Part shown: positions 1,866 through 20,000 of the stretch, piece after piece
Position numbering within the stretch: the stretch's first letter is position 1
Layout: every line of letters starts with the position of its first letter
Virus record (IMG/VR): IMGVR_UViG_3300032282_004167
Source of the DNA: an uncultured virus (IMG/VR IMGVR_UViG_3300032282_004167)
Taxonomy: Duplodnaviria; Heunggongvirae; Uroviricota; Caudoviricetes
Length of the DNA stretch: 20,000 nucleotides
Strand: one strand, 5' to 3'
The notes under the pieces: model-generated
What the model was told of the DNA's origin: nothing
Database searches by the model: none
Seen by the model: the letters and a program-made list of their open reading frames with translations, nothing else
Made by a program: the position numbers and the translations under genes

Positions 1866-3116
1866 ATGCAAGTTATAGAAGAAGTCCAGCCAGCAATCAC
1901 TGCTGATGAACTTTACATCAAAGATGTTAATGGTTTTCCTCTTTTCCACGCTTCTACCACCACTGCTCTTGACGTGATTGAAAATGAAGGTCATGACATT
2001 TATTATGTTCTTGCTTCAGAACAAATTGAAACTCAAGAAGGTACAGTAAAGAAGTCTGTTTACCGTCCCACAATTTTTAGAGTCACTAAGACTATTATTG
2101 GTCGCTCTATTATTAAAGCTTCTTCTCCAGAGCTTGATATTCCACTAGATATCAAACAGTCTGCTTGGTTTACTCTTCCCAAGATTCCTTGGACTATGCT
2201 TAAGAAGATGGACTCCTTCTTCCGTCAGGCCTATAAGCTTCATGGCACTGAGTCCGTTCTTGTTCTTACTTATGACCCCAATTATAAGAACTCTGAGAAT
2301 CCTTCTGATGGCTGGGGATGCATTGCTCCCAAGCAGACCAACACTGCTGCTAGCTGTGACTATGAGTTTGATAGCGTTATGCAAGTCAAGCCTGAGCATG
2401 TTTTTATCGTTGGTTCTGCTCATAGTCACCCCAACATGAGCGCCTATTTCAGTGGCACTGACCATCAGGATCAGGCAGACTGGGATGGTCTTCATATCAC
2501 TTTCGGCTGGAAAGGTGATGGTCCTTCTGAATATCATATTGGGTTGATGCTCGGCGGAGAAGAATGGCCTTTTAAGCCTGAACAAGTTTTTGAGCCCGCC
2601 CCTGAACCCACTATTGCTCTTGACGAAGTAGATGGCTGGGTGCAAAACGTCCAAAAAAAAGTCTATACTCAACCGGCTTCTGCGACGACTACTGGGGGAT
2701 GGGTTGGGGCTACTTATAACACTCCTGTTACTTCTTATAAGCCTGCTCTTGGCTCCAGTATTCCTTCAGAGCGCAAACGTGCCATTAAGCTTCCTGACAA
2801 TACTCCTGACCCTAGGAATCATGTCATTGTTGCAAGGGTTGATTTGCACGACAACATGAAGTGCTGTTTCTGTAGTACTCCTTTGGCACCAAAGATTCTT
2901 GAGTCTCGCCGTTGTGCCGCTTGCAGCTCTTACTTCTTGATTGATGATGAACCCCTTGACGAACTTCTTCCTGTTCGTCAAAAGCTTGGCAAGCCATATG
3001 ACATCAATATCGATATTGAACGCTCTCCTGTTCCTATTGTTGTCTGGAACGTTGATCCCACTGGTAAGAATCATTTCTTTAGTGGTGATCAACGAATTGC
3101 TGCTTCCCCAAAATAA
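1866..3116 (+). CDS. JAB/MPN+ (JAMM) metallo-isopeptidase with Pro/Thr linker and C-terminal Zn ribbon
   Basis: E (HGTESV) ... AHSHPNMSAYFSGTD matches the JAMM E-HxH-x7-S-x2-D motif; GLHITFG follows, as in PRTRC-A-like JABs. C-terminal CCFC...CAAC. Confidence 0.88.
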   Translation: MQVIEEVQPAITADELYIKDVNGFPLFHASTTTALDVIENEGHDIYYVLASEQIETQEGTVKKSVYRPTIFRVTKTIIGRSIIKASSPELDIPLDIKQSAWFTLPKIPWTMLKKMDSFFRQAYKLHGTESVLVLTYDPNYKNSENPSDGWGCIAPKQTNTAASCDYEFDSVMQVKPEHVFIVGSAHSHPNMSAYFSGTDHQDQADWDGLHITFGWKGDGPSEYHIGLMLGGEEWPFKPEQVFEPAPEPTIALDEVDGWVQNVQKKVYTQPASATTTGGWVGATYNTPVTSYKPALGSSIPSERKRAIKLPDNTPDPRNHVIVARVDLHDNMKCCFCSTPLAPKILESRRCAACSSYFLIDDEPLDELLPVRQKLGKPYDINIDIERSPVPIVVWNVDPTGKNHFFSGDQRIAASPK

Positions 3117-3187
3117 TTAAGGGCACTGACTATAGAGATCGTATCTCTCATAGAAAGAGCCCATTAGAAGAGCTTTCTTTGTGCCCT
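3107..3187 (+). promoter_or_regulatory. Putative -1 programmed ribosomal frameshift signal (slippery heptamer plus stimulatory RNA structure)
   Basis: C_CCA_AAA (3107-3113) is in the JAB frame directly before TAA. After a 6-nt spacer, AGGGCAC (3120-3126) pairs with GTGCCCT (3181-3187) and encloses AGAGAT-CGT-ATCTCT. The -1 frame is open through 3727. Confidence 0.65.
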
Positions 3188-3727
3188 AAATGTTCTGCAT
3201 GGGCGCCAGTAAATACTCACTGGGATTTCTGGACTTGTGACGAATGTTACGAGGCTATGGATGAATGGTGGCTTGTTGATTCATTGTTTTGGCATGATGA
3301 TACTCATACCTATATTGATACTTCTATTGATTATCTCTATACCCGTCATTATCCAGAAGCCATTACCGCAGATGATTGTATGATTTGTGATTCTAACTTC
3401 ATGATTCAGAATTGTTCTTGTGGTACCAATCCATATGATTGGACTGACTTTTTAAGAATCACTAGAGCTAAGAATATTAACAATTCTGACATTTATGCTT
3501 TAGATTTTGAGAAAAGCATGGATTGTTATCTTTGTGAGTATTTCAATACTTACCAATGTGTTCCAATAAGAAACTGGTTCAGGAATCTTGTAGAAACTCA
3601 TACTCTTCCTCAAGAAAAAATTTCTTTCTGCAAATACTTTACTCCTGATCCATCAGCAGATGATGTATTAATTGAAACGGTTTTGAATCAACTTGGAAAA
3701 GAAGAAATATTGTTAAAGGGAATATGA
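3179..3727 (+). CDS. Cys-rich multi-CxxC protein, probably expressed as the -1 frameshift extension of JAB (frame open from 3089)
   Basis: CPKC, CDEC, CMIC, CSC, CYLC. Only a TTG start with a weak SD. Stop overlaps the E1 start. Confidence 0.7.
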   Translation: MCPKCSAWAPVNTHWDFWTCDECYEAMDEWWLVDSLFWHDDTHTYIDTSIDYLYTRHYPEAITADDCMICDSNFMIQNCSCGTNPYDWTDFLRITRAKNINNSDIYALDFEKSMDCYLCEYFNTYQCVPIRNWFRNLVETHTLPQEKISFCKYFTPDPSADDVLIETVLNQLGKEEILLKGI

Positions 3728-4500
3728 TAACAATGAAACCTGTCAGGTGCGTAATCGTCGGCTGTGGCGGTATTGGTTCTTGGCTTGCAGCTGGTCTCGT
3801 AAGAGCAATGCAGTTCCAAGCTCCCATGTCTCAACTTGTCCTCGTTGATGGCGACAACTTTGAACCAAAGAACATGGAACGTCAAAGCTTTGTTACTTAC
3901 GGCAATAAAGCTAATGCTCTTCGTTCTGACCTTCAACCAATTGCCCCTCAAACCTTTGTCATTTCTCGTCCAGCTTGGATCGTTCCAGAAGGTATGGCAG
4001 TTGTTTCCGAGGATGATACTACTACGAAAATGACTGCTCATCAGTTGCTTCAAGAAAATGATTATGTTTTTGTTGCAGTAGACAATTTTGCTGCTCGTAA
4101 ACTATTGTTTGATGCAGCTGCTGATTATAACAATATTGACATTTTTACTGGCGGTAATGATGACAGACTTTTCGGTTCTGTTTATCATTATCAACGTCGT
4201 GATGGTCAAGATATTACCTTACCCCCTGCTCACTTTCATGATGAGTTTGTTAATCCACCTGATAAGAATCCAGGTGAACTTTCTTGTCAAGAGCGTGCAG
4301 CATTAGATGGCGGCACTCAATTGCTTGCTGTCAATATGGGTGTTGCAGCGTGGCTTTTATCGAAAGCTTGTTATGTCATCTTTGGCACCGATGAAGAAAG
4401 CAAAGCATCTGTAGAATTGTCAGAAATTTATTTCGACATGGAAGCAGGGCTTTCTCAGCCATATGATCGTCGTCCAGTTAATGTCCCAATCACCGTTTAA
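3724..4500 (+). CDS. ThiF/MoeB-family E1-like Ubl-activating enzyme
   Basis: VIVGCGGIGSW nucleotide-binding loop, DGDNFEPKNMERQ, AVDNFAARK, GGN, and ELSCQE...Q...N with putative catalytic Cys188. No CxxC Zn pairs, as in PRTRC-type ThiF. Confidence 0.92.
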   Translation: MITMKPVRCVIVGCGGIGSWLAAGLVRAMQFQAPMSQLVLVDGDNFEPKNMERQSFVTYGNKANALRSDLQPIAPQTFVISRPAWIVPEGMAVVSEDDTTTKMTAHQLLQENDYVFVAVDNFAARKLLFDAAADYNNIDIFTGGNDDRLFGSVYHYQRRDGQDITLPPAHFHDEFVNPPDKNPGELSCQERAALDGGTQLLAVNMGVAAWLLSKACYVIFGTDEESKASVELSEIYFDMEAGLSQPYDRRPVNVPITV

Positions 4501-4518
4501 CAAACGAGGTACAATACA

Positions 4519-4773
4519 ATGAATGAATCAGTAAGCCAGCCGTCCCCATCAGCAAGTTCTTCTTCGGGCAAGGTCACCATCAAGTATGGTGTTCACGTTC
4601 GTGAAGTCGAAGCTGGTACTACCATTGGCGATCTTCGCAAGAAGTATGGTCAAATCCTTCGCATCCCCGAAGATGCTCGCGGCTACAGCGGCACCAATCA
4701 GATGAGCGATGACCAAGTCCTCACCGACGGTACCACCGTTGAGTTTGTCCGCAAGACCGGCGAAAAGGGCTGA
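4519..4773 (+). CDS. Ubiquitin-like beta-grasp protein with free C-terminal Gly (GEKG)
   Basis: VTIKYG...GTTIGDLRKK...LRIP...DDQVLTDGTTVEFVRKTGEKG fits the beta-grasp pattern. GxKG end resembles Prok_Ub/PRTRC-C. GAGGT SD upstream; directly follows E1. Confidence 0.85.
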   Translation: MNESVSQPSPSASSSSGKVTIKYGVHVREVEAGTTIGDLRKKYGQILRIPEDARGYSGTNQMSDDQVLTDGTTVEFVRKTGEKG

Positions 4774-5700: not shown

Positions 5701-7302
5701 ATGTCACTGCTTTCTGCGATTCAGAATCGCACTCCTTTGGTTTGGGTCATGACTACTGAGCCTGAGCGATTGATCGCTAACATTCCTGCCATTTCTGACG
5801 ATAGAATCATTTATATCTTTGACCCTATTAAAGGTCTTCTTCAGTGGTCTTCCGATGACAATGAGTGGAAAATTGTACTAGTAAATATTCCCTCTCTTGA
5901 TCCAGATGAAGAAGATGATCAGGTTACTTTAAGTGATTATCCCTCTGCTCTTAGTTATGTTCTTTCCAGCGTTAATTCTATATTTATTGCCCGCAATGCT
6001 CATAAAGATATAGATAATTTCTTGTCTTTGTATTCTTCTATTTACGGCCAGTATCGTAACGCTTTTTGGACTAATAACCTTGATTCTCTTCCTGTCCAGA
6101 TTATTGCTCTTTCCGCAGGAGATTCTCCTCCCGCAGAAATTGCCAATATGTGCACTAAAGTTTCTTATGGAACTCCTTCAGACAATGAGTTTGCTTCTAT
6201 AGTCTCTCACATCAATGAACATCATGAACATGACATCTTAAAGGGTCAAGATCTCCAAAAGATTGTGAATGCTTCTCGCGGAATGACTGAATTTGAAGCC
6301 ATTGAAACTTATTTCCAGTCTATTCGTACTAATCAAGTCATTGACCAAGAGATGATCAGCAAGCTCAAGCTTGATCGTCTCAAGCGAGAGACTATTCTGG
6401 ACATCATTCGCCCTACCGTTGACCTTGCTAACGTTGGTGGTCTTGATAATGCTAAGCATCTGATCAGTCAAGCTGATTGGATCTGGCGCAATCCCAACGA
6501 TGCCAATGAGTTTGGTCTTACTGCGCTGCGTCGTGTCTTGTTCCTTGGCTTACCCGGCACTGGCAAGTCATATATCTGTGAGGCAGCAGCAAAAACTCTT
6601 GGCCTTGATCTTGCTCGTACAGGCATCGGTAAAATCATGAATAAGTTTGTCGGTCAGTCAGAGCAGAATATGCTTGCAACTTTCCAACACATTGCTGCAC
6701 TTGCTCCTATTGCAGTGTGGATCGATGAGCTTGGTCGTGACCTCAGTGGTGGTGGCTCCTCTGACACAGTCGATGGTGGCACTACAAGTCGTGTCCATGC
6801 TGCTTTTCTTACTGGTCTTCAGGAGCTTCCTGACAATGTGTTTTTATTTGCTGCAGCTAATGACATTGATTCTTTGGCTCCCGAAATGCTTCGTGCTGAT
6901 CGTTTTGATAAGATCATGTTCGTCGGTTTCCCAAGTTTTAAAGAACGACGTGAAATTTTCCGTCTTAATCTTTCTCCTCAGGTTCAATATGACCTTGACC
7001 ATTTAGCTGAAGCCACTCCCTGTTTCACCGGTGCAGAAATAAAGAGCCTTGTTAAAGAAGTTCGATTTAAAGTTTCTCCTTCAGAGAAGCGTCATATCAA
7101 TACTGATGATATAATTAAAGCCGTTCCTCTTCAGAAGAATCGTTTATGGCTCCGTCATCGTCATACTGTCACATCTATGTATTCTCGCGCTCTTGTAGAA
7201 CATGAATGGGCTTCTACGGATCAGTTCAATGATGCTGCATTAATTGTCAAGGGCAAAGAGCCTTCAAAGATTCAAGTCAAGACTTCTTTCAATTTAAAGT
7301 GA
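5701..7302 (+). CDS. AAA+ ATPase, Ycf46-like (degenerate N-terminal domain plus active classical AAA module)
   Basis: VGGLDNAK, Walker A GLPGTGKS, NKFVGQSE pore loop, Walker B VWIDE, SRH AANDIDSLAPEMLRADRFD, FTGAEI. GGAG SD upstream. Confidence 0.9.
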   Translation: MSLLSAIQNRTPLVWVMTTEPERLIANIPAISDDRIIYIFDPIKGLLQWSSDDNEWKIVLVNIPSLDPDEEDDQVTLSDYPSALSYVLSSVNSIFIARNAHKDIDNFLSLYSSIYGQYRNAFWTNNLDSLPVQIIALSAGDSPPAEIANMCTKVSYGTPSDNEFASIVSHINEHHEHDILKGQDLQKIVNASRGMTEFEAIETYFQSIRTNQVIDQEMISKLKLDRLKRETILDIIRPTVDLANVGGLDNAKHLISQADWIWRNPNDANEFGLTALRRVLFLGLPGTGKSYICEAAAKTLGLDLARTGIGKIMNKFVGQSEQNMLATFQHIAALAPIAVWIDELGRDLSGGGSSDTVDGGTTSRVHAAFLTGLQELPDNVFLFAAANDIDSLAPEMLRADRFDKIMFVGFPSFKERREIFRLNLSPQVQYDLDHLAEATPCFTGAEIKSLVKEVRFKVSPSEKRHINTDDIIKAVPLQKNRLWLRHRHTVTSMYSRALVEHEWASTDQFNDAALIVKGKEPSKIQVKTSFNLK

Positions 7303-10123: not shown

Positions 10124-11053
10124 ATGACAAAAAGTACATTGATATTTTCTGATACAGAAGAAGCTTTTTATTCTGCTTCTGACAAGAATGTATCTCTTGA
10201 TTTTAATTCTGTCTCTAAACAGTTTTCTTCTTCCGCTCCTGATCTTGGTCTTCTTCCTCCGGTCGTAAGGTATATATCCCCTTGGCTCATTGATCATTCT
10301 AATAATGATAATGGTCGCCATTATGCTTTTGCTATCGTTGAGCAACCTCCTTCTATGAAGACTATTTCTTTTCATTCTACTAGTCATGATGATTGTGACC
10401 CTGATGATGAGTGTGAACATTGTTTCAATGAGGATTATCCTTTAGCAAAAACTATAAATATTCCTGTTCCATGGAATTATTGGGTTTTTCATTTTACTCC
10501 AAGTTCTGATAATCATCCAATATTTTCTGGTCATGTAAATCTTTTTTTTGCTCATTCTCAAGCTCATGATTTAGACAATCCTTTATATCCTCCTTTTGTT
10601 CCAAATATATCTCCTGTTAGCTGGTATAAGAACGATATCATAGACAGTATTCTTTCTTCTTGTACTGTTTGTATTGGTTCTGATTTTTGGGCTACTAAAA
10701 TCAATAATTTTTCTTTTGCTAATTATCTCAAATTTCCTCTTGGTATAGACGATATATCTTTTGATCAGCTTTTTAGAGATTACGTTTCTTTCTTTTGGTC
10801 AACTACTTTCAATTCTGACTATTCAGATCATTTGTATAATTTTCTTGAATTAATTGTTGATTCCAAAAATGATATCCCTAATGATGTTCATGGTTGGTTT
10901 CCCTTTCTTGCACAGATGTCTATCGATGAAGTTCTTACTCGTTTAAAGAAACATTCTACTTCTATGTACTCTTTGGGCGATGTAATTAATGCTTTTGATT
11001 CTTGCATTCCTCCTATTAATTTACGTGCTATTTTTGCTAAGCTATCGATTTGA
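10124..11053 (+). CDS. Prok-E2_D-like protein, paralog 2
   Basis: GLLPPVVRYIS, VEQPP, IPVPW, PLYPPFVPNI...CTVCIG, FWSTTFNSD. Acidic DDCDPDDECEHC insertion. Confidence 0.65.
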   Translation: MTKSTLIFSDTEEAFYSASDKNVSLDFNSVSKQFSSSAPDLGLLPPVVRYISPWLIDHSNNDNGRHYAFAIVEQPPSMKTISFHSTSHDDCDPDDECEHCFNEDYPLAKTINIPVPWNYWVFHFTPSSDNHPIFSGHVNLFFAHSQAHDLDNPLYPPFVPNISPVSWYKNDIIDSILSSCTVCIGSDFWATKINNFSFANYLKFPLGIDDISFDQLFRDYVSFFWSTTFNSDYSDHLYNFLELIVDSKNDIPNDVHGWFPFLAQMSIDEVLTRLKKHSTSMYSLGDVINAFDSCIPPINLRAIFAKLSI

Positions 11054-11074: not shown

Positions 11075-11923
11075 ATGTTTCTTAAAATTGATTACGATAA
11101 CGAAGAAGAAGTCGCTGATTTTTCTTTATCAACTGATACTTCTCTTTACAAATCAAATTTTTCTTCGATTGCTTCTTGTGCTTCTGATGAATGGAGCAAT
11201 TATTATTCTTCCAGGAATAATTTGATTCCACTCAATTGTCTTCCTCCGGCCGTAAGATATATTTCTTCTGATCGTAGACTTATTGTCTGGGAGCGTCCTC
11301 CAGCTTATAAGTCAATTAACTATACTCAAGAGTATCAAGATGCTCTTTCTCCTGATCAGCAAAGCACCGTGTTTCATAGGCTTCCTGTTCCTTGGCAGGT
11401 GTATGTAATCCACCTTTCTCCTGAAGCCAGATTAGCTAACGTTTTTATGTTTTTTAGGAATAGTCAGATAAACAGCATGGTTGATGATCAGTTATGTTTT
11501 GCTACTCTTCCAAATTTTTATGAAACAGGAAGACTCTGTCAAGCTGCCTTTGATACCATTCAATCATATGACAGAGATGTTCTTTCTTCTATCAATGCCG
11601 CTTATGAAATGATTTGGAATTCTGGCTTTAATAAAGATACTTTATTGGCTTATAATTCTCTTTTTAATACTCCTGGTTTGAAAAAAAATAATCCTCTTGT
11701 TTCTTCCTTTAGCACTACTAGAACTCCTTATTATACCTTTGATAAGTGGACTAAGTATCGAATTGAGGACGTAGTTACCTGGACATGGCCTACTGCTTAC
11801 AACTCTCTTCATCATTTCATTGAGACTAGAGCGTATGCTCAGGCTATTGAACCTGATTCTCATAACTTCATGGTTAATATGTTATTTGCCGCTCAAGATG
11901 CTCCACAAAAAACAAAACAATAG
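11075..11923 (+). CDS. Prok-E2_D-like protein, paralog 3
   Basis: LPPAVRYIS, WERPP, LPVPWQVY, LCFATLPNFYETGRLC (Cys155), IWNSGFNKD: closest to the PRTRC-B PN.Y..G.IC...FW.S.F pattern. AAGGA SD. Confidence 0.75.
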   Translation: MFLKIDYDNEEEVADFSLSTDTSLYKSNFSSIASCASDEWSNYYSSRNNLIPLNCLPPAVRYISSDRRLIVWERPPAYKSINYTQEYQDALSPDQQSTVFHRLPVPWQVYVIHLSPEARLANVFMFFRNSQINSMVDDQLCFATLPNFYETGRLCQAAFDTIQSYDRDVLSSINAAYEMIWNSGFNKDTLLAYNSLFNTPGLKKNNPLVSSFSTTRTPYYTFDKWTKYRIEDVVTWTWPTAYNSLHHFIETRAYAQAIEPDSHNFMVNMLFAAQDAPQKTKQ

Positions 11924-17043: not shown

Positions 17044-17116
17044 GCCTCCGTAGCTCAATGGATAGAGTATCTGGTTTCTACCCAGCTTGTTGGGGGTTCG
17101 AGTCCCTCCGGGGGTG
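17044..17116 (+). tRNA. tRNA-Arg (anticodon TCT)
   Basis: Acceptor GCCTCCG/CGGGGGT, D arm GCTC-AATGGATA-GAGT, anticodon arm CTGG-TTTCTAC-CCAG, T arm GGGGG-TTCGAGT-CCCTC. CCA not encoded. Confidence 0.93.
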
Positions 17117-17187
17117 CTAGCATTAAGATCATACTGTGATATGATTATGCACCTACAATTTACATTTATTCTAATAAGGAAATTGAC

Positions 17188-18481: not shown

Positions 18482-18498
18482 TGTCTATCCATTAGTTT

Positions 18499-18585
18499 GG
18501 AGAGGTGCCTGAGCGGTCGAAAGGGCCGGTTTGCTAAACCGTTGACAAAGCAATTTGTCCGTGGGTTCGAATCCCACCCTCTCCG
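18499..18585 (+). tRNA. tRNA-Ser (anticodon GCT), long variable arm
   Basis: Acceptor GGAGAGG/CCTCTCC, anticodon CGGT-TTGCTAA-ACCG, variable arm GACAAA-GCAA-TTTGTC, T arm GTGGG-TTCGAAT-CCCAC, G discriminator. CCA not encoded. Confidence 0.93.
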
Positions 18586-18610
18586 CTTCAAAACTATTTT
18601 AGGAGATAAA

Positions 18611-19078
18611 ATGCCAAATGCTTCAATGATTAATTATGGTTATAAATGGGATTATTTAAAGGCCAAAGGCTGGCAGATTAAAGCTTCCAATGTTCCTAGA
18701 GGCACTGCAAATTGCGATTGTGCTAATAAAACTATTTGGATGAAGCCCTCTGCCTTTAACGCTCCTCGTCTTCGTATAAGAAAATATGTTGTTCCTCATG
18801 AAATTTGGCATGCGTTGCATTGCGAAATTCTTCAATATGAATGCAGCTCTTTGCAGACCGCAAGAAACCTAAACAAAGCTGCCGCCTTAGAAGTTGTAGC
18901 TGATGGCGGTGTTCTTAATGATACTCCGTCTAAAATCATGGGTGCTTGGGTGAGAGCATCTGTCATTTGGCATGGTAAAGTTGGATACAAGTATAAGTAT
19001 TCTGATCTTGTTTCTCCTGAGGCTTTACAAATTATCAGAATGATTAACTTAGCTGTTAAAAGCGATGCCACTCCCTAG
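18611..19078 (+). CDS. HExxH zincin-like metalloprotein (ImmA/IrrE-like layout)
   Basis: True start ATG 18611 after AGGAG. VVPHEIWHALH with downstream EVVAD as candidate third ligand. Confidence 0.7.
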   Translation: MPNASMINYGYKWDYLKAKGWQIKASNVPRGTANCDCANKTIWMKPSAFNAPRLRIRKYVVPHEIWHALHCEILQYECSSLQTARNLNKAAALEVVADGGVLNDTPSKIMGAWVRASVIWHGKVGYKYKYSDLVSPEALQIIRMINLAVKSDATP

Positions 19079-19649
19079 AAAGAAAAACTTTTTGATTGAC
19101 AATTTAGTTCAAGAATTACGTAATTGGTCAGCGCTCGTTAGAGAAGCAATTGAACGTGGTATTCATATTGAAATACAAGATCTAACTATTTGTGAGACTG
19201 CTGCCCACGAACTTGAACGTCTTCAAGATGCTGCTGACGCCCTTGCTGCTGCTGCTCGTTCTGGTATCGGTATCGATAATGCCATAGAAAGATGGGATGA
19301 TTATCGTGGATCATCTCCTCAGCCATTGTCTCAAGACGATATTGTTATTCTTTTGCGACAACGCGCTCTTTCCTGGCTCGATGCAAATGATGACTTAATC
19401 CTTGATACTAGAGCTGCTGAAGAGATAGACTGGCTACGCCAACAGAATACCATTCTCCGCAAAGCAGCAGGCGAAGAAGGCCGAGCAAATCGTATGACGC
19501 TATTGCATGAATCGGCACAAACAGAGATTAAACTGTTAAGTGAAAAAATTCAAGATCTTCAAATGTACGCTGAGCAAGATGCTTGTGAAATCGAACGTTT
19601 ACGGTCTGAATTAGCCCAAGTTCGATCACAACTTTTGGACTGGAGATAA
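19065..19649 (+). CDS. Phage coiled-coil protein with repeated LV..LR...A..E(I/L)ERL units
   Basis: AAHELERLQ, DDIVILLR, AAEEIDWLR, ACEIERLR. Confidence 0.75.
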   Translation: MPLPRKKNFLIDNLVQELRNWSALVREAIERGIHIEIQDLTICETAAHELERLQDAADALAAAARSGIGIDNAIERWDDYRGSSPQPLSQDDIVILLRQRALSWLDANDDLILDTRAAEEIDWLRQQNTILRKAAGEEGRANRMTLLHESAQTEIKLLSEKIQDLQMYAEQDACEIERLRSELAQVRSQLLDWR

Positions 19650-19651
19650 CA

Positions 19652-19996
19652 ATGACTGACGACATCGTGACCCGAATCCTTGACGTGGCGACTGAACATG
19701 CTTTGCGCCGCACGCACTACGAGGGCTGTGCTGGGTCGCATCTGGAATGTGCTGCGATCATGGCCGCCGACGAGATCAAACTGTTGCGAGACGACGTTGA
19801 CGAGTCCATCGCTGCCCTCTTACGGGCAGTCATGGCCTTGATGTGCAAGGTTGATGACATCGTGCGCTTGTTGGTTGACATCGAACAGTTGAGCGCACTG
19901 GGAGACGAAATAGCACGCTTGTATTCCGACCTCGGGCCGTGGGCAAACGAGTTCAAGAGCGCCGTTCGAGCATGGCAGGAGGCCCGCCGTGGCTGA
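19652..19996 (+). CDS. Phage 'DDIV...AADEI' family small protein, GC-rich
   Basis: GGAG SD; MTDDIVTRI...AADEIKLLR...DDIVRLL...DEIARL. Confidence 0.75.
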   Translation: MTDDIVTRILDVATEHALRRTHYEGCAGSHLECAAIMAADEIKLLRDDVDESIAALLRAVMALMCKVDDIVRLLVDIEQLSALGDEIARLYSDLGPWANEFKSAVRAWQEARRG

Positions 19997-20000
19997 CGAC

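Follow-up and report, generated by a model that had tools for sequence, protein, structure and literature searches.

How is a Cys-rich reading frame translated when it overlaps the end of a phage gene for a JAB/JAMM metallopeptidase, lies in the -1 frame relative to it, and has a potentially slippery heptamer at the junction? The question is raised by a 20,000-nucleotide stretch of DNA (the window; position 1 is its first letter) from an uncultured virus of the Caudoviricetes (IMG/VR record IMGVR_UViG_3300032282_004167). Its initial annotation, made from the letters alone, proposed that a -1 ribosomal frameshift gives the JAB peptidase a second, zinc-finger-extended isoform. Our analysis of the window and of homologous loci suggests that this gene very probably contains a site of programmed -1 ribosomal frameshifting (-1 PRF). 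The elements concerned are the following, where nt denotes nucleotides, aa amino acid residues and ORF an open reading frame.

1866..3116, + strand: predicted JAB/JAMM metallopeptidase gene, short isoform, 0 frame, 416 aa (ORF list, Pfam Prok-JAB, JAMM motif)
3107..3113, + strand: slippery heptamer C_CCA_AAA, proposed tandem -1 slippage site (X_XXY_YYZ phase, 0 frame)
3114..3116, + strand: 0-frame TAA stop, the termination point for unshifted ribosomes (sequence)
3113..3727, + strand: predicted -1 frame extension with linker, zinc ribbon (CPKC...CDEC) and Cys-cluster domain, 204 codons plus TGA (3725-3727)
3120..3187, + strand: predicted stimulatory RNA structure, a 7-base-pair outer stem enclosing two hairpins (fold and compensatory changes)
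3179..3181, + strand: TTG, the only canonical -1-frame start before CxxC, judged not to be the main start (position, weak Shine-Dalgarno (SD) pairing, upstream conservation)

The product of 1866-3116 has the sequence characteristics expected of a JAB/JAMM (MPN+) metallopeptidase. It matched Pfam Prok-JAB (PF14464) with an E-value of 5.6e-07 and 29.9 bits against a cut-off of 25, and it contains the complete zinc-binding and catalytic JAMM motif E...HxH-x7-S-xx-D: GSAHSHPNMSAYFSGTD. Residues E129, H186, H188, S196 and D199 were invariant in the alignment with 45 relatives. The 416-aa protein also has a C-terminal zinc ribbon of its own (CCFC...CAAC), and the best solved match of the JAB family profile, in a sequence-based search, was the Rpn11-like protein 6fjv (E-value 1.2e-04). 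The 3' end of the gene reads TCC CCA AAA TAA, with the heptamer abutting the stop codon. The -1 frame is free of stops from 3089 to 3727, overlaps the JAB frame over 3089-3116 and, translated across the junction, reads PK-IIKGTDYRDRISHRKSPLEELSL-CPKC, so that the long isoform is predicted to comprise 416 + 204 = 620 aa. The layout described in the initial annotation was recovered in full: a heptamer in phase against the JAB stop, a stem 6 nt past it enclosing two hairpins, a -1 frame that continues without a stop into the Cys-rich ORF, a TTG beside the stem as the only ATG, GTG or TTG of that ORF before the first CxxC, and isoforms of 416 and about 620 aa. No promoter- or terminator-like site was found between the JAB gene and the Cys-rich ORF, and Rfam gave nothing above the gathering score over 2900-3400 (U3 reached 23.4 bits against 34). 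PHROGs had no match for the JAB protein or the extension, a DNA similarity search with 1866-4773 gave no match in the deposited phage collection, and viral-contig scans with single proteins (JAB; P0123) gave none.

We then looked at the JAB stop in relatives. The protein search with JAB gave 212 matches, the best 120 of which were examined, and 53 viral, 80 metagenomic and 9 genome-bin loci were fetched, in which JAB and the Cys-rich domain were located by hidden Markov models (HMM) on stop-to-stop ORFs. Eighteen distinct loci, the window included, have a short JAB gene. In 17 of them an in-phase X_XXY_YYZ heptamer lies 0-4 codons upstream of the JAB stop, at a distance of 0 codons in eight loci, 1 codon in another eight and 4 codons in one. 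In each of the 17 the Cys-rich ORF occupies the -1 frame, where it is intact over 192-309 codons, and its overlap with the JAB stop amounts to 16-142 nt. The heptamers are of four types (numbers preceded by L denote loci).

CCCAAAA: 3 loci (window, L001, L138)
GGGAAAA: 9 loci (L002, L003, L004, L005, L022, L057, L060, L062, L065)
AAAAAAA: 4 loci (L054, L061, L135, L136)
CCCTTTA: 1 locus (L112)

The short-JAB proteins of these loci have diverged to a median pairwise identity of 36%, and only the pairs L003/L057 and L061/L135 exceed 90%. As a control, we counted in-phase heptamers 0-1 codon before the stop in stop-to-stop ORFs of at least 100 codons from the fetched loci and found them in 21 of 975. 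The heptamer arrangement at the JAB stop exceeds chance expectation. The heptamer constrains the third position of the codon before it and requires GGA or CCA, then AAA instead of AAG. Given the encoded residues, these synonymous choices have a joint probability of 0.001-0.027 per locus, 0.012 for the window gene; multiplied over 14 loci that are assumed to be independent this amounts to 2e-28, a value overstated by the two near-duplicate pairs. At the protein level, 45 of the 57 short JAB database proteins among the matches listed end in PK, GK or KK plus 0-1 residue. Taken together, these comparisons indicate that the site is conserved in homologues, with apparent selection on synonymous positions. 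An SD-like sequence upstream of the heptamer was noticed, by eye only, in some loci (L065, L112, L135).

Slippery sites of this kind are expected to be followed by a stimulatory structure starting about 5-9 nt past the heptamer. In the window, the outer stem pairs AGGGCAC (3120-3126) with GTGCCCT (3181-3187), and the codons for Cys-Pro in CPKC make up its 3' arm. When 3114-3190 is folded, the minimum-energy structure contains this stem (-21.6 kcal/mol, z-score -2.77, one of 200 shuffles as good). Covariation was read in the codon register by a script. Locus L001, with about 45% JAB identity to the window, also has its stem 6 nt past the heptamer; the structure likewise spans 68 nt and encloses two hairpins, and the Cys-Pro codons of CPxC form its 3' arm. 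Two of the seven pairs differ on both sides from those of the window (one A-T to G-C, the other G-C to A-T), and the changes in the 3' arm are synonymous. Within the GGGAAAA clade, L002 differs from L022, L003 and L057 by compensatory changes in two of eight pairs. We also scored the best uninterrupted helix with a 5' arm starting 3-10 nt past the heptamer. Its score averaged 18.1 over 14 loci, while 1542 control positions within those loci averaged 13.6 (Mann-Whitney p 4.5e-05). Ten of the 14 loci were within the top 14% of controls, and the fold z-scores of the 90 nt after the heptamer averaged -2.0. A predicted structure at the expected distance is present, with a signal that is uneven between loci.

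If the extension were not reached by frameshifting, the Cys-rich ORF would need a start of its own. TTG 3179, from which the gene caller derived a 182-aa product (P0121), lies on the 3' side of the stem, one codon before the first Cys of the zinc ribbon. The stretch of 23 residues between the slip site and CPKC is conserved at the amino-acid level, both in L001 and in database relatives (R..SP...L..CP.C); a start at TTG 3179 would drop 22 conserved residues, and this protein-level conservation upstream speaks against it. The anti-SD duplex at TTG 3179 has a calculated energy of -2.1 kcal/mol, which 38% of background positions equal or better, and the values for ATT 3116 and ATA 3113 are +0.4 and +0.1 kcal/mol. 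The 26 other gene starts examined in the window are all ATG, with a median anti-SD duplex of -4.05 kcal/mol. In 11 of the 17 heptamer loci the -1 frame contains no ATG, GTG or TTG at all before the first conserved CxxC. Consistent with this, six of 15 database relatives of the Cys-rich ORF have been called from a start inside the zinc ribbon, as would be expected if no upstream start exists. Independent initiation at TTG 3179 had been named in the initial annotation as an outcome that would contradict frameshifting, and the weak SD pairing, the upstream conservation and the relatives lacking any start all argue against it. The downstream ORF appears to be a long -1 frame, homologous to a real protein and lacking any credible start codon.

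Evidence that the -1 frame encodes such a protein comes from relatives in which both parts form one gene. The closest JAB relatives among the matches listed are 390-460 aa long, similar to the window protein (P0002 is 75% identical), and 63 of the best 120 of the 212 matches are 530-630 aa long and run 115-300 residues past the part aligned with the window JAB. An HMM of these long-form tails matches the window -1 ORF, and a profile-profile comparison (hhalign) of the -1 products with 39 long-form C-terminal tails gave a probability of 98.8% and an E-value of 8.6e-17 over 89 columns. Because of these two matches, we infer that the domain encoded in the -1 frame of the window is fused in frame to JAB in more distant relatives. 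Both groups share the signature CC-x(8-10)-C-x-C ... Y ... C-x2-C-x7-C ... C, and seven Cys and one Tyr of the extension are invariant. Each of the 114 long-form loci has a single ORF of 551-639 codons, and an HMM of the Cys domain built from stand-alone relatives located it inside the long ORF in 64 of the 114 and in no other ORF. The initial annotation had recommended checking whether homologous JAB genes keep a heptamer before the stop or are fused in frame; both arrangements occur, the former in 17 of the 18 short-JAB loci and the latter in the 114 long-form loci. In an IQ-TREE phylogeny of 107 distinct JAB regions, 14 short-JAB rows and 93 fused rows were split by a branch with 100% SH-aLRT. 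As judged from this tree, one switch between the fused and the short-JAB layouts would suffice, and since the tree is unrooted it could have gone in either direction. With one further locus described below, the family appears to show three layouts of JAB and the Cys domain: fused, frameshifted and separate. Two of the fused loci, L011 and L014, belong to the same viral contig (267,766 bases), which carries two fused JAB-Cys gene copies about 215 kb apart.

The extension was also modeled. The AF2 model had a pLDDT of 75.2, and residues 80-180 mostly reached 80 or more. Foldseek gave no match for it in the PDB at an E-value of 0.001. The best hit of a wide VIA-align search had a Z-score of only 3.0 and was the zinc-binding part of NudC, covering residues 1-53 only, and the ESM Atlas matches were confined to unnamed viral clusters (0.76). 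With the -1 product as query, a word-index search retrieved nothing but the protein of the window itself. On the basis of the model, the C-terminal domain of the extension does not seem to match a solved fold, which does not by itself prove that the fold is novel.

Other in-phase heptamers were noted in the course of the analysis. In the window, a run of eight A at 2653-2660 (CAA AAA AAA GTC, encoding QKKV) creates a second in-phase A_AAA_AAA inside the JAB gene, where a -1 shift would terminate soon afterwards. The fused relatives contain 108 in-phase A/T heptamers in 103 ORFs, which cluster at the place equivalent to 2653-2660, 260-319 residues from the C-terminus; this cluster may merely reflect a conserved KK motif in AT-rich codons. 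We considered whether the fused relatives make a short isoform in the manner of dnaX and rejected this possibility, as the in-phase A/T heptamers show no clustering where the two domains meet: the 40 found there in the 103 ORFs are scattered across 120 residues. In four fused-form loci (L023:1582-3450, L035:1588-3450, L093:1487-3481 and L128:1406-2488) the gene directly upstream of JAB ends in C_CCT_TTT TAA, again an in-phase heptamer. For L023 and L035 no fusion of the upstream gene with JAB is expected, because a stop closes the -1 frame, which is that of JAB, between the heptamer and the JAB start. The control scan also flagged genes for ubiquitin-like proteins (Ubl) at L011:5907-6209, L014:5841-6146 and L037:5854-6171, which end in GAA AAG GGC and a stop, giving an in-phase A_AAG_GGC; these are probably just the codons of the conserved EKG.

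The mechanism that we propose is as follows. A ribosome reaching C_CCA_AAA at 3107-3113 would have CCA paired with tRNA-Pro in the P site and AAA with tRNA-Lys in the A site, and would be held there by the stem 6 nt downstream (3120-3187), perhaps also by the adjacent TAA. A fraction of the ribosomes would slip back by one base (CCA to CCC, AAA to AAA) and continue for 204 codons in the -1 frame. Two proteins with the same N-terminus would result: the 416-aa JAB ending at TAA, and a 620-aa form in which JAB is followed by the linker, a second zinc ribbon and the Cys-cluster domain. Slippage at the site probably occurs and both isoforms may matter, and the Cys-cluster domain may be a metal-binding docking module for the neighboring E1 and ubiquitin-like machinery.

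Several observations weigh against this interpretation. The eighteenth short-JAB locus, L134, on a metagenome-assembled genome contig labelled Candidatus Saccharibacteria (4700-4760), has its Cys-rich ORF in the +1 frame, overlapping the JAB end, with AAGGAG 7 nt upstream of a GTG and with no in-phase heptamer in the last ten JAB codons. This is the layout of an ordinary separate gene, and the Cys-rich domain can evidently function as a protein of its own; L134 weakens the view that linkage is essential, but not frameshifting at the 17 heptamer loci. Six of these 17 loci, the window with its TTG among them, have some canonical -1-frame start before CxxC, and nine of the 15 database relatives of the Cys-rich ORF have been called with an N-terminal Met 15-22 residues before CPxC, in which case genuine starts may exist at the junction (e.g. 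AAA-ATG-A). The structural signal has its own exceptions: a 101-nt piece of the window folds more weakly (z-score only -1.49), four of the 14 loci score no better than controls for the helix, and the 90-nt fold z-score is about 0 for L054 and L112. RNAalifold on MAFFT alignments of the post-heptamer regions yielded no consensus structure, because these sequences are too diverged to be aligned as DNA. No RNA sequencing runs containing the window DNA are listed. Finally, the slipperiness of CCA-AAA on the ribosomes of the host is assumed from other bacteria.

Three other explanations of the locus have to be compared with frameshifting. The Cys-rich protein could be encoded by a separate gene, starting at TTG 3179 or reinitiating at the near-cognate ATA 3113 or ATT 3116, with the heptamer being incidental. 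We regard this as unlikely, even though TTG 3179 exists and is used by gene callers, TAATT is similar to the common TAATG stop-start overlap, L134 provides a true separate layout with AAGGAG and GTG, and a Met upstream of CPxC has been called in nine of the 15 database relatives. Separate genes would leave unexplained why in-phase heptamers with constrained synonymous sites are found in 17 of 17 loci together with a covarying stem. They are also difficult to reconcile with the 11 loci that have no canonical start before CxxC, with L001, L004, L060, L062 and L112, whose junctions lack even a near-cognate start, or with the six relatives called from within the zinc ribbon. In the window itself, a protein started at TTG 3179 would begin one codon before a zinc ligand and lack the 22 conserved residues, and SD pairing is weak or absent at the candidate starts, whereas the other starts examined are all ATG.

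A still less probable source of a fused product is transcriptional slippage, in which RNA polymerase would stutter on the A run and produce mRNAs with one base fewer or two more. A7-length runs can support such slippage and are present in four of the 17 loci (L054, L061, L135, L136), but in the window and 12 further loci the runs are no longer than four A or three T (CCCAAAA, GGGAAAA, CCCTTTA), at which such slippage could not act. Conservation concerns the two-triplet phase X_XXY_YYZ and not the run length, and a downstream stem at 5-8 nt suits ribosomal rather than polymerase slippage. We give hardly any credence to the idea that the locus is a pseudogene, a fused gene broken by an indel in the assembly or by a recent frameshift mutation. 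It could appeal to the fused form in the sister clade and to the fact that only one run contains the window. In the Logan assembly of this sole matching DNA run, 2800-3500 is identical to the window, with no indel; the run may be the window's source, so the agreement is not an independent read check. The same layout recurs, however, in 17 independently assembled and deeply diverged loci with four heptamer types, the -1 ORF is intact over its 192-309 codons in each of them, and the split always falls exactly on a slippery heptamer. An assembly indel, which the initial annotation had listed among the findings that would overturn its proposal, is excluded because the layout recurs in independent assemblies. 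Programmed -1 frameshifting by the ribosome is in our view by far the best account of the locus.

The JAB gene lies in a run of + strand genes and has neighbors that suggest the pathway in which the two isoforms would act.

3733..4500, + strand: predicted ThiF-type E1-like adenylating enzyme, 255 aa from ATG 3733 (alternative start ATG 3724; Pfam ThiF, E-value 9.1e-19)
4519..4773, + strand: predicted ubiquitin-like protein, 84 aa, ending GEKG (AF2 model, Foldseek)
5701-7302: AAA+ ATPase (Pfam AAA, E-value 3.2e-22; phrog_8638, E-value 5.4e-64; PADLOC IetA, E-value 5.3e-23)

The E1-like protein contains a GxGGxG motif, and G10, G12, G13, G15, D39, D41 and C185 are invariant in 26 sequences, as would be expected of an adenylating enzyme of the ThiF/MoeB/Uba superfamily; a sequence search for solved relatives gave none at an E-value of 0.001. 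Sequence searches alone found no match for the 84-aa protein. Its AF2 model (pLDDT 80.9) shows the beta-beta-alpha-beta-beta-beta order of a beta-grasp fold, and Foldseek matched the model to ubiquitins and Ubl proteins, the best being Caldiarchaeum ubiquitin in complex with an Rpn11 homologue (6fnn_C, E-value 3.6e-04, TM 0.62). The protein is highly conserved, with the C-terminal G-x-K-G invariant in 26 relatives, and according to the model it is probably a ubiquitin-like beta-grasp modifier. In four of 16 Ubl relatives at short-JAB loci (e.g. L061:6011-6277, L004:6128-6382) the terminal Gly is followed by two extra residues (RS, SK, LA, EN); these forms resemble precursors that need trimming, presumably by the JAB. 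The AAA+ ATPase lies 930 nt downstream of the Ubl gene, and its combination with Ubl, E1 and an Rpn11-like JAB recalls a tag-and-unfold module. The related contigs are viral and reach a length of 268 kb. Directly upstream of JAB, 105-1823 encodes a protein of 572 aa that has no Pfam, PHROG or PADLOC match and whose C-terminal half contains many CxxC pairs.

Elsewhere in the window, tRNA genes for Arg (tct) and Ser (gct) were found at 17044-17117 and 18499-18586. A TTG ORF at 18497-19078 overlaps the tRNA-Ser gene, and its 5' part is for this reason probably not coding. The adjacent ORFs 10124-11053 (309 aa) and 11075-11923 (282 aa) share the motifs LPPxVRYIS... and PVPW.....H and look like tandem paralogues. 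The G+C content is 0.475 in 19001-20000 versus 0.33-0.45 in the rest of the window.

On balance we favor, with less assurance than for the frameshift itself, the broader view that a clade of large uncultured phages sets the proportion of free to Cys-domain-tethered JAB by a conserved -1 frameshift within a phage Ubl-E1-JAB-AAA ATPase module. If this is true, recoding would be described for the first time in a ubiquitin-like pathway, whether prokaryotic or viral, and the fused, frameshifted and separate layouts would constitute a natural experiment for asking why the ratio of the isoforms stays fixed. Two forms of JAB, one with a Cys-cluster domain, would also give a handle on the role of the phage Ubl/E1/JAMM/AAA ATPase module in infection. 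The comparative support is unusually strong: it comes from about 15 lineages that are independent of one another and from four types of heptamer, and it includes a covarying stem and a sister clade with in-frame fusion. There is a consequence for annotation as well, as gene callers divide the locus between a JAB gene and a 'hypothetical protein' that lacks its N-terminal part. To our knowledge, conserved frameshift sites are rare in DNA phages outside tail chaperones and a few capsid genes, and in enzyme genes they are rarer still. Our full-text searches found no description of recoding in JAB/Ubl operons or prokaryotic Ubl systems.

With CBASS Cap2/Cap3, Bil, Bub and the Caldiarchaeum Ub/Rpn11 system the operon shares adjoining genes for a JAMM peptidase, an E1 of the ThiF type in which a Cys is conserved, and a protein of ubiquitin fold with Gly at its C-terminus, and the complex of Caldiarchaeum ubiquitin with the Rpn11 homologue supplies the best solved matches of both the Ubl model and the JAB profile. 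It differs from these systems in being located on large phage contigs and not in a cellular defence island. Pfam detected no E2 in the ten neighboring ORFs tested, and with PADLOC the E1-E2 models matched just part of the E1 domain (residues 5-80, best 3.9e-10), while JAB, Ubl and the Cys domain had no match; membership in the known anti-phage Ubl systems (CBASS type II, Bil, Bub) was rejected, given that no E2 was recognized and that the E1 matches are partial.

Among recoded genes, dnaX (tau/gamma) is an enzyme gene with a slippery site of lysine codons, a downstream stem-loop and isoforms that differ in their C-terminal domains; the shifted product is the shorter one in dnaX, whereas in the window JAB it would be the longer one. 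The tail assembly chaperones G/GT, which are often said to need no strong downstream structure, differ in gene family and function, and the window family, unlike them, has a fused sister clade and a covarying stem in several lineages. The window JAB is not itself such a chaperone: it has no PHROG or Pfam match of that kind and is flanked by E1, Ubl and AAA ATPase genes. It resembles G/GT of lambda and other long-tailed phages (see also PMC10885494) in having X_XXY_YYZ near the 0-frame stop and a short and a long protein with a common N-terminus, and also in a slippery site that persists although the proteins have lost all recognizable similarity. The heptamer of the window itself is used by Lactobacillus phages. 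Phage A2 uses -1 frameshifting (PMC5009743), and the head gene of BH1, a phage of the Lactobacillus casei group, contains CCCAAAA, with similarity to A2 (PMC6950654); the view in the initial annotation that CCCAAAA is a known -1 site holds for phages of this group. Their frameshift extends a structural capsid protein by an Ig-like domain, whereas in the window an enzyme of the JAB family would be extended by a Cys cluster, and there is no sequence relationship between the two. They agree in the heptamer, in a -1 shift near the end of the 0-frame ORF and in a C-terminally extended second product. The proposed mechanism is classical tandem-slippage -1 PRF; what is new is the gene family and the pathway.

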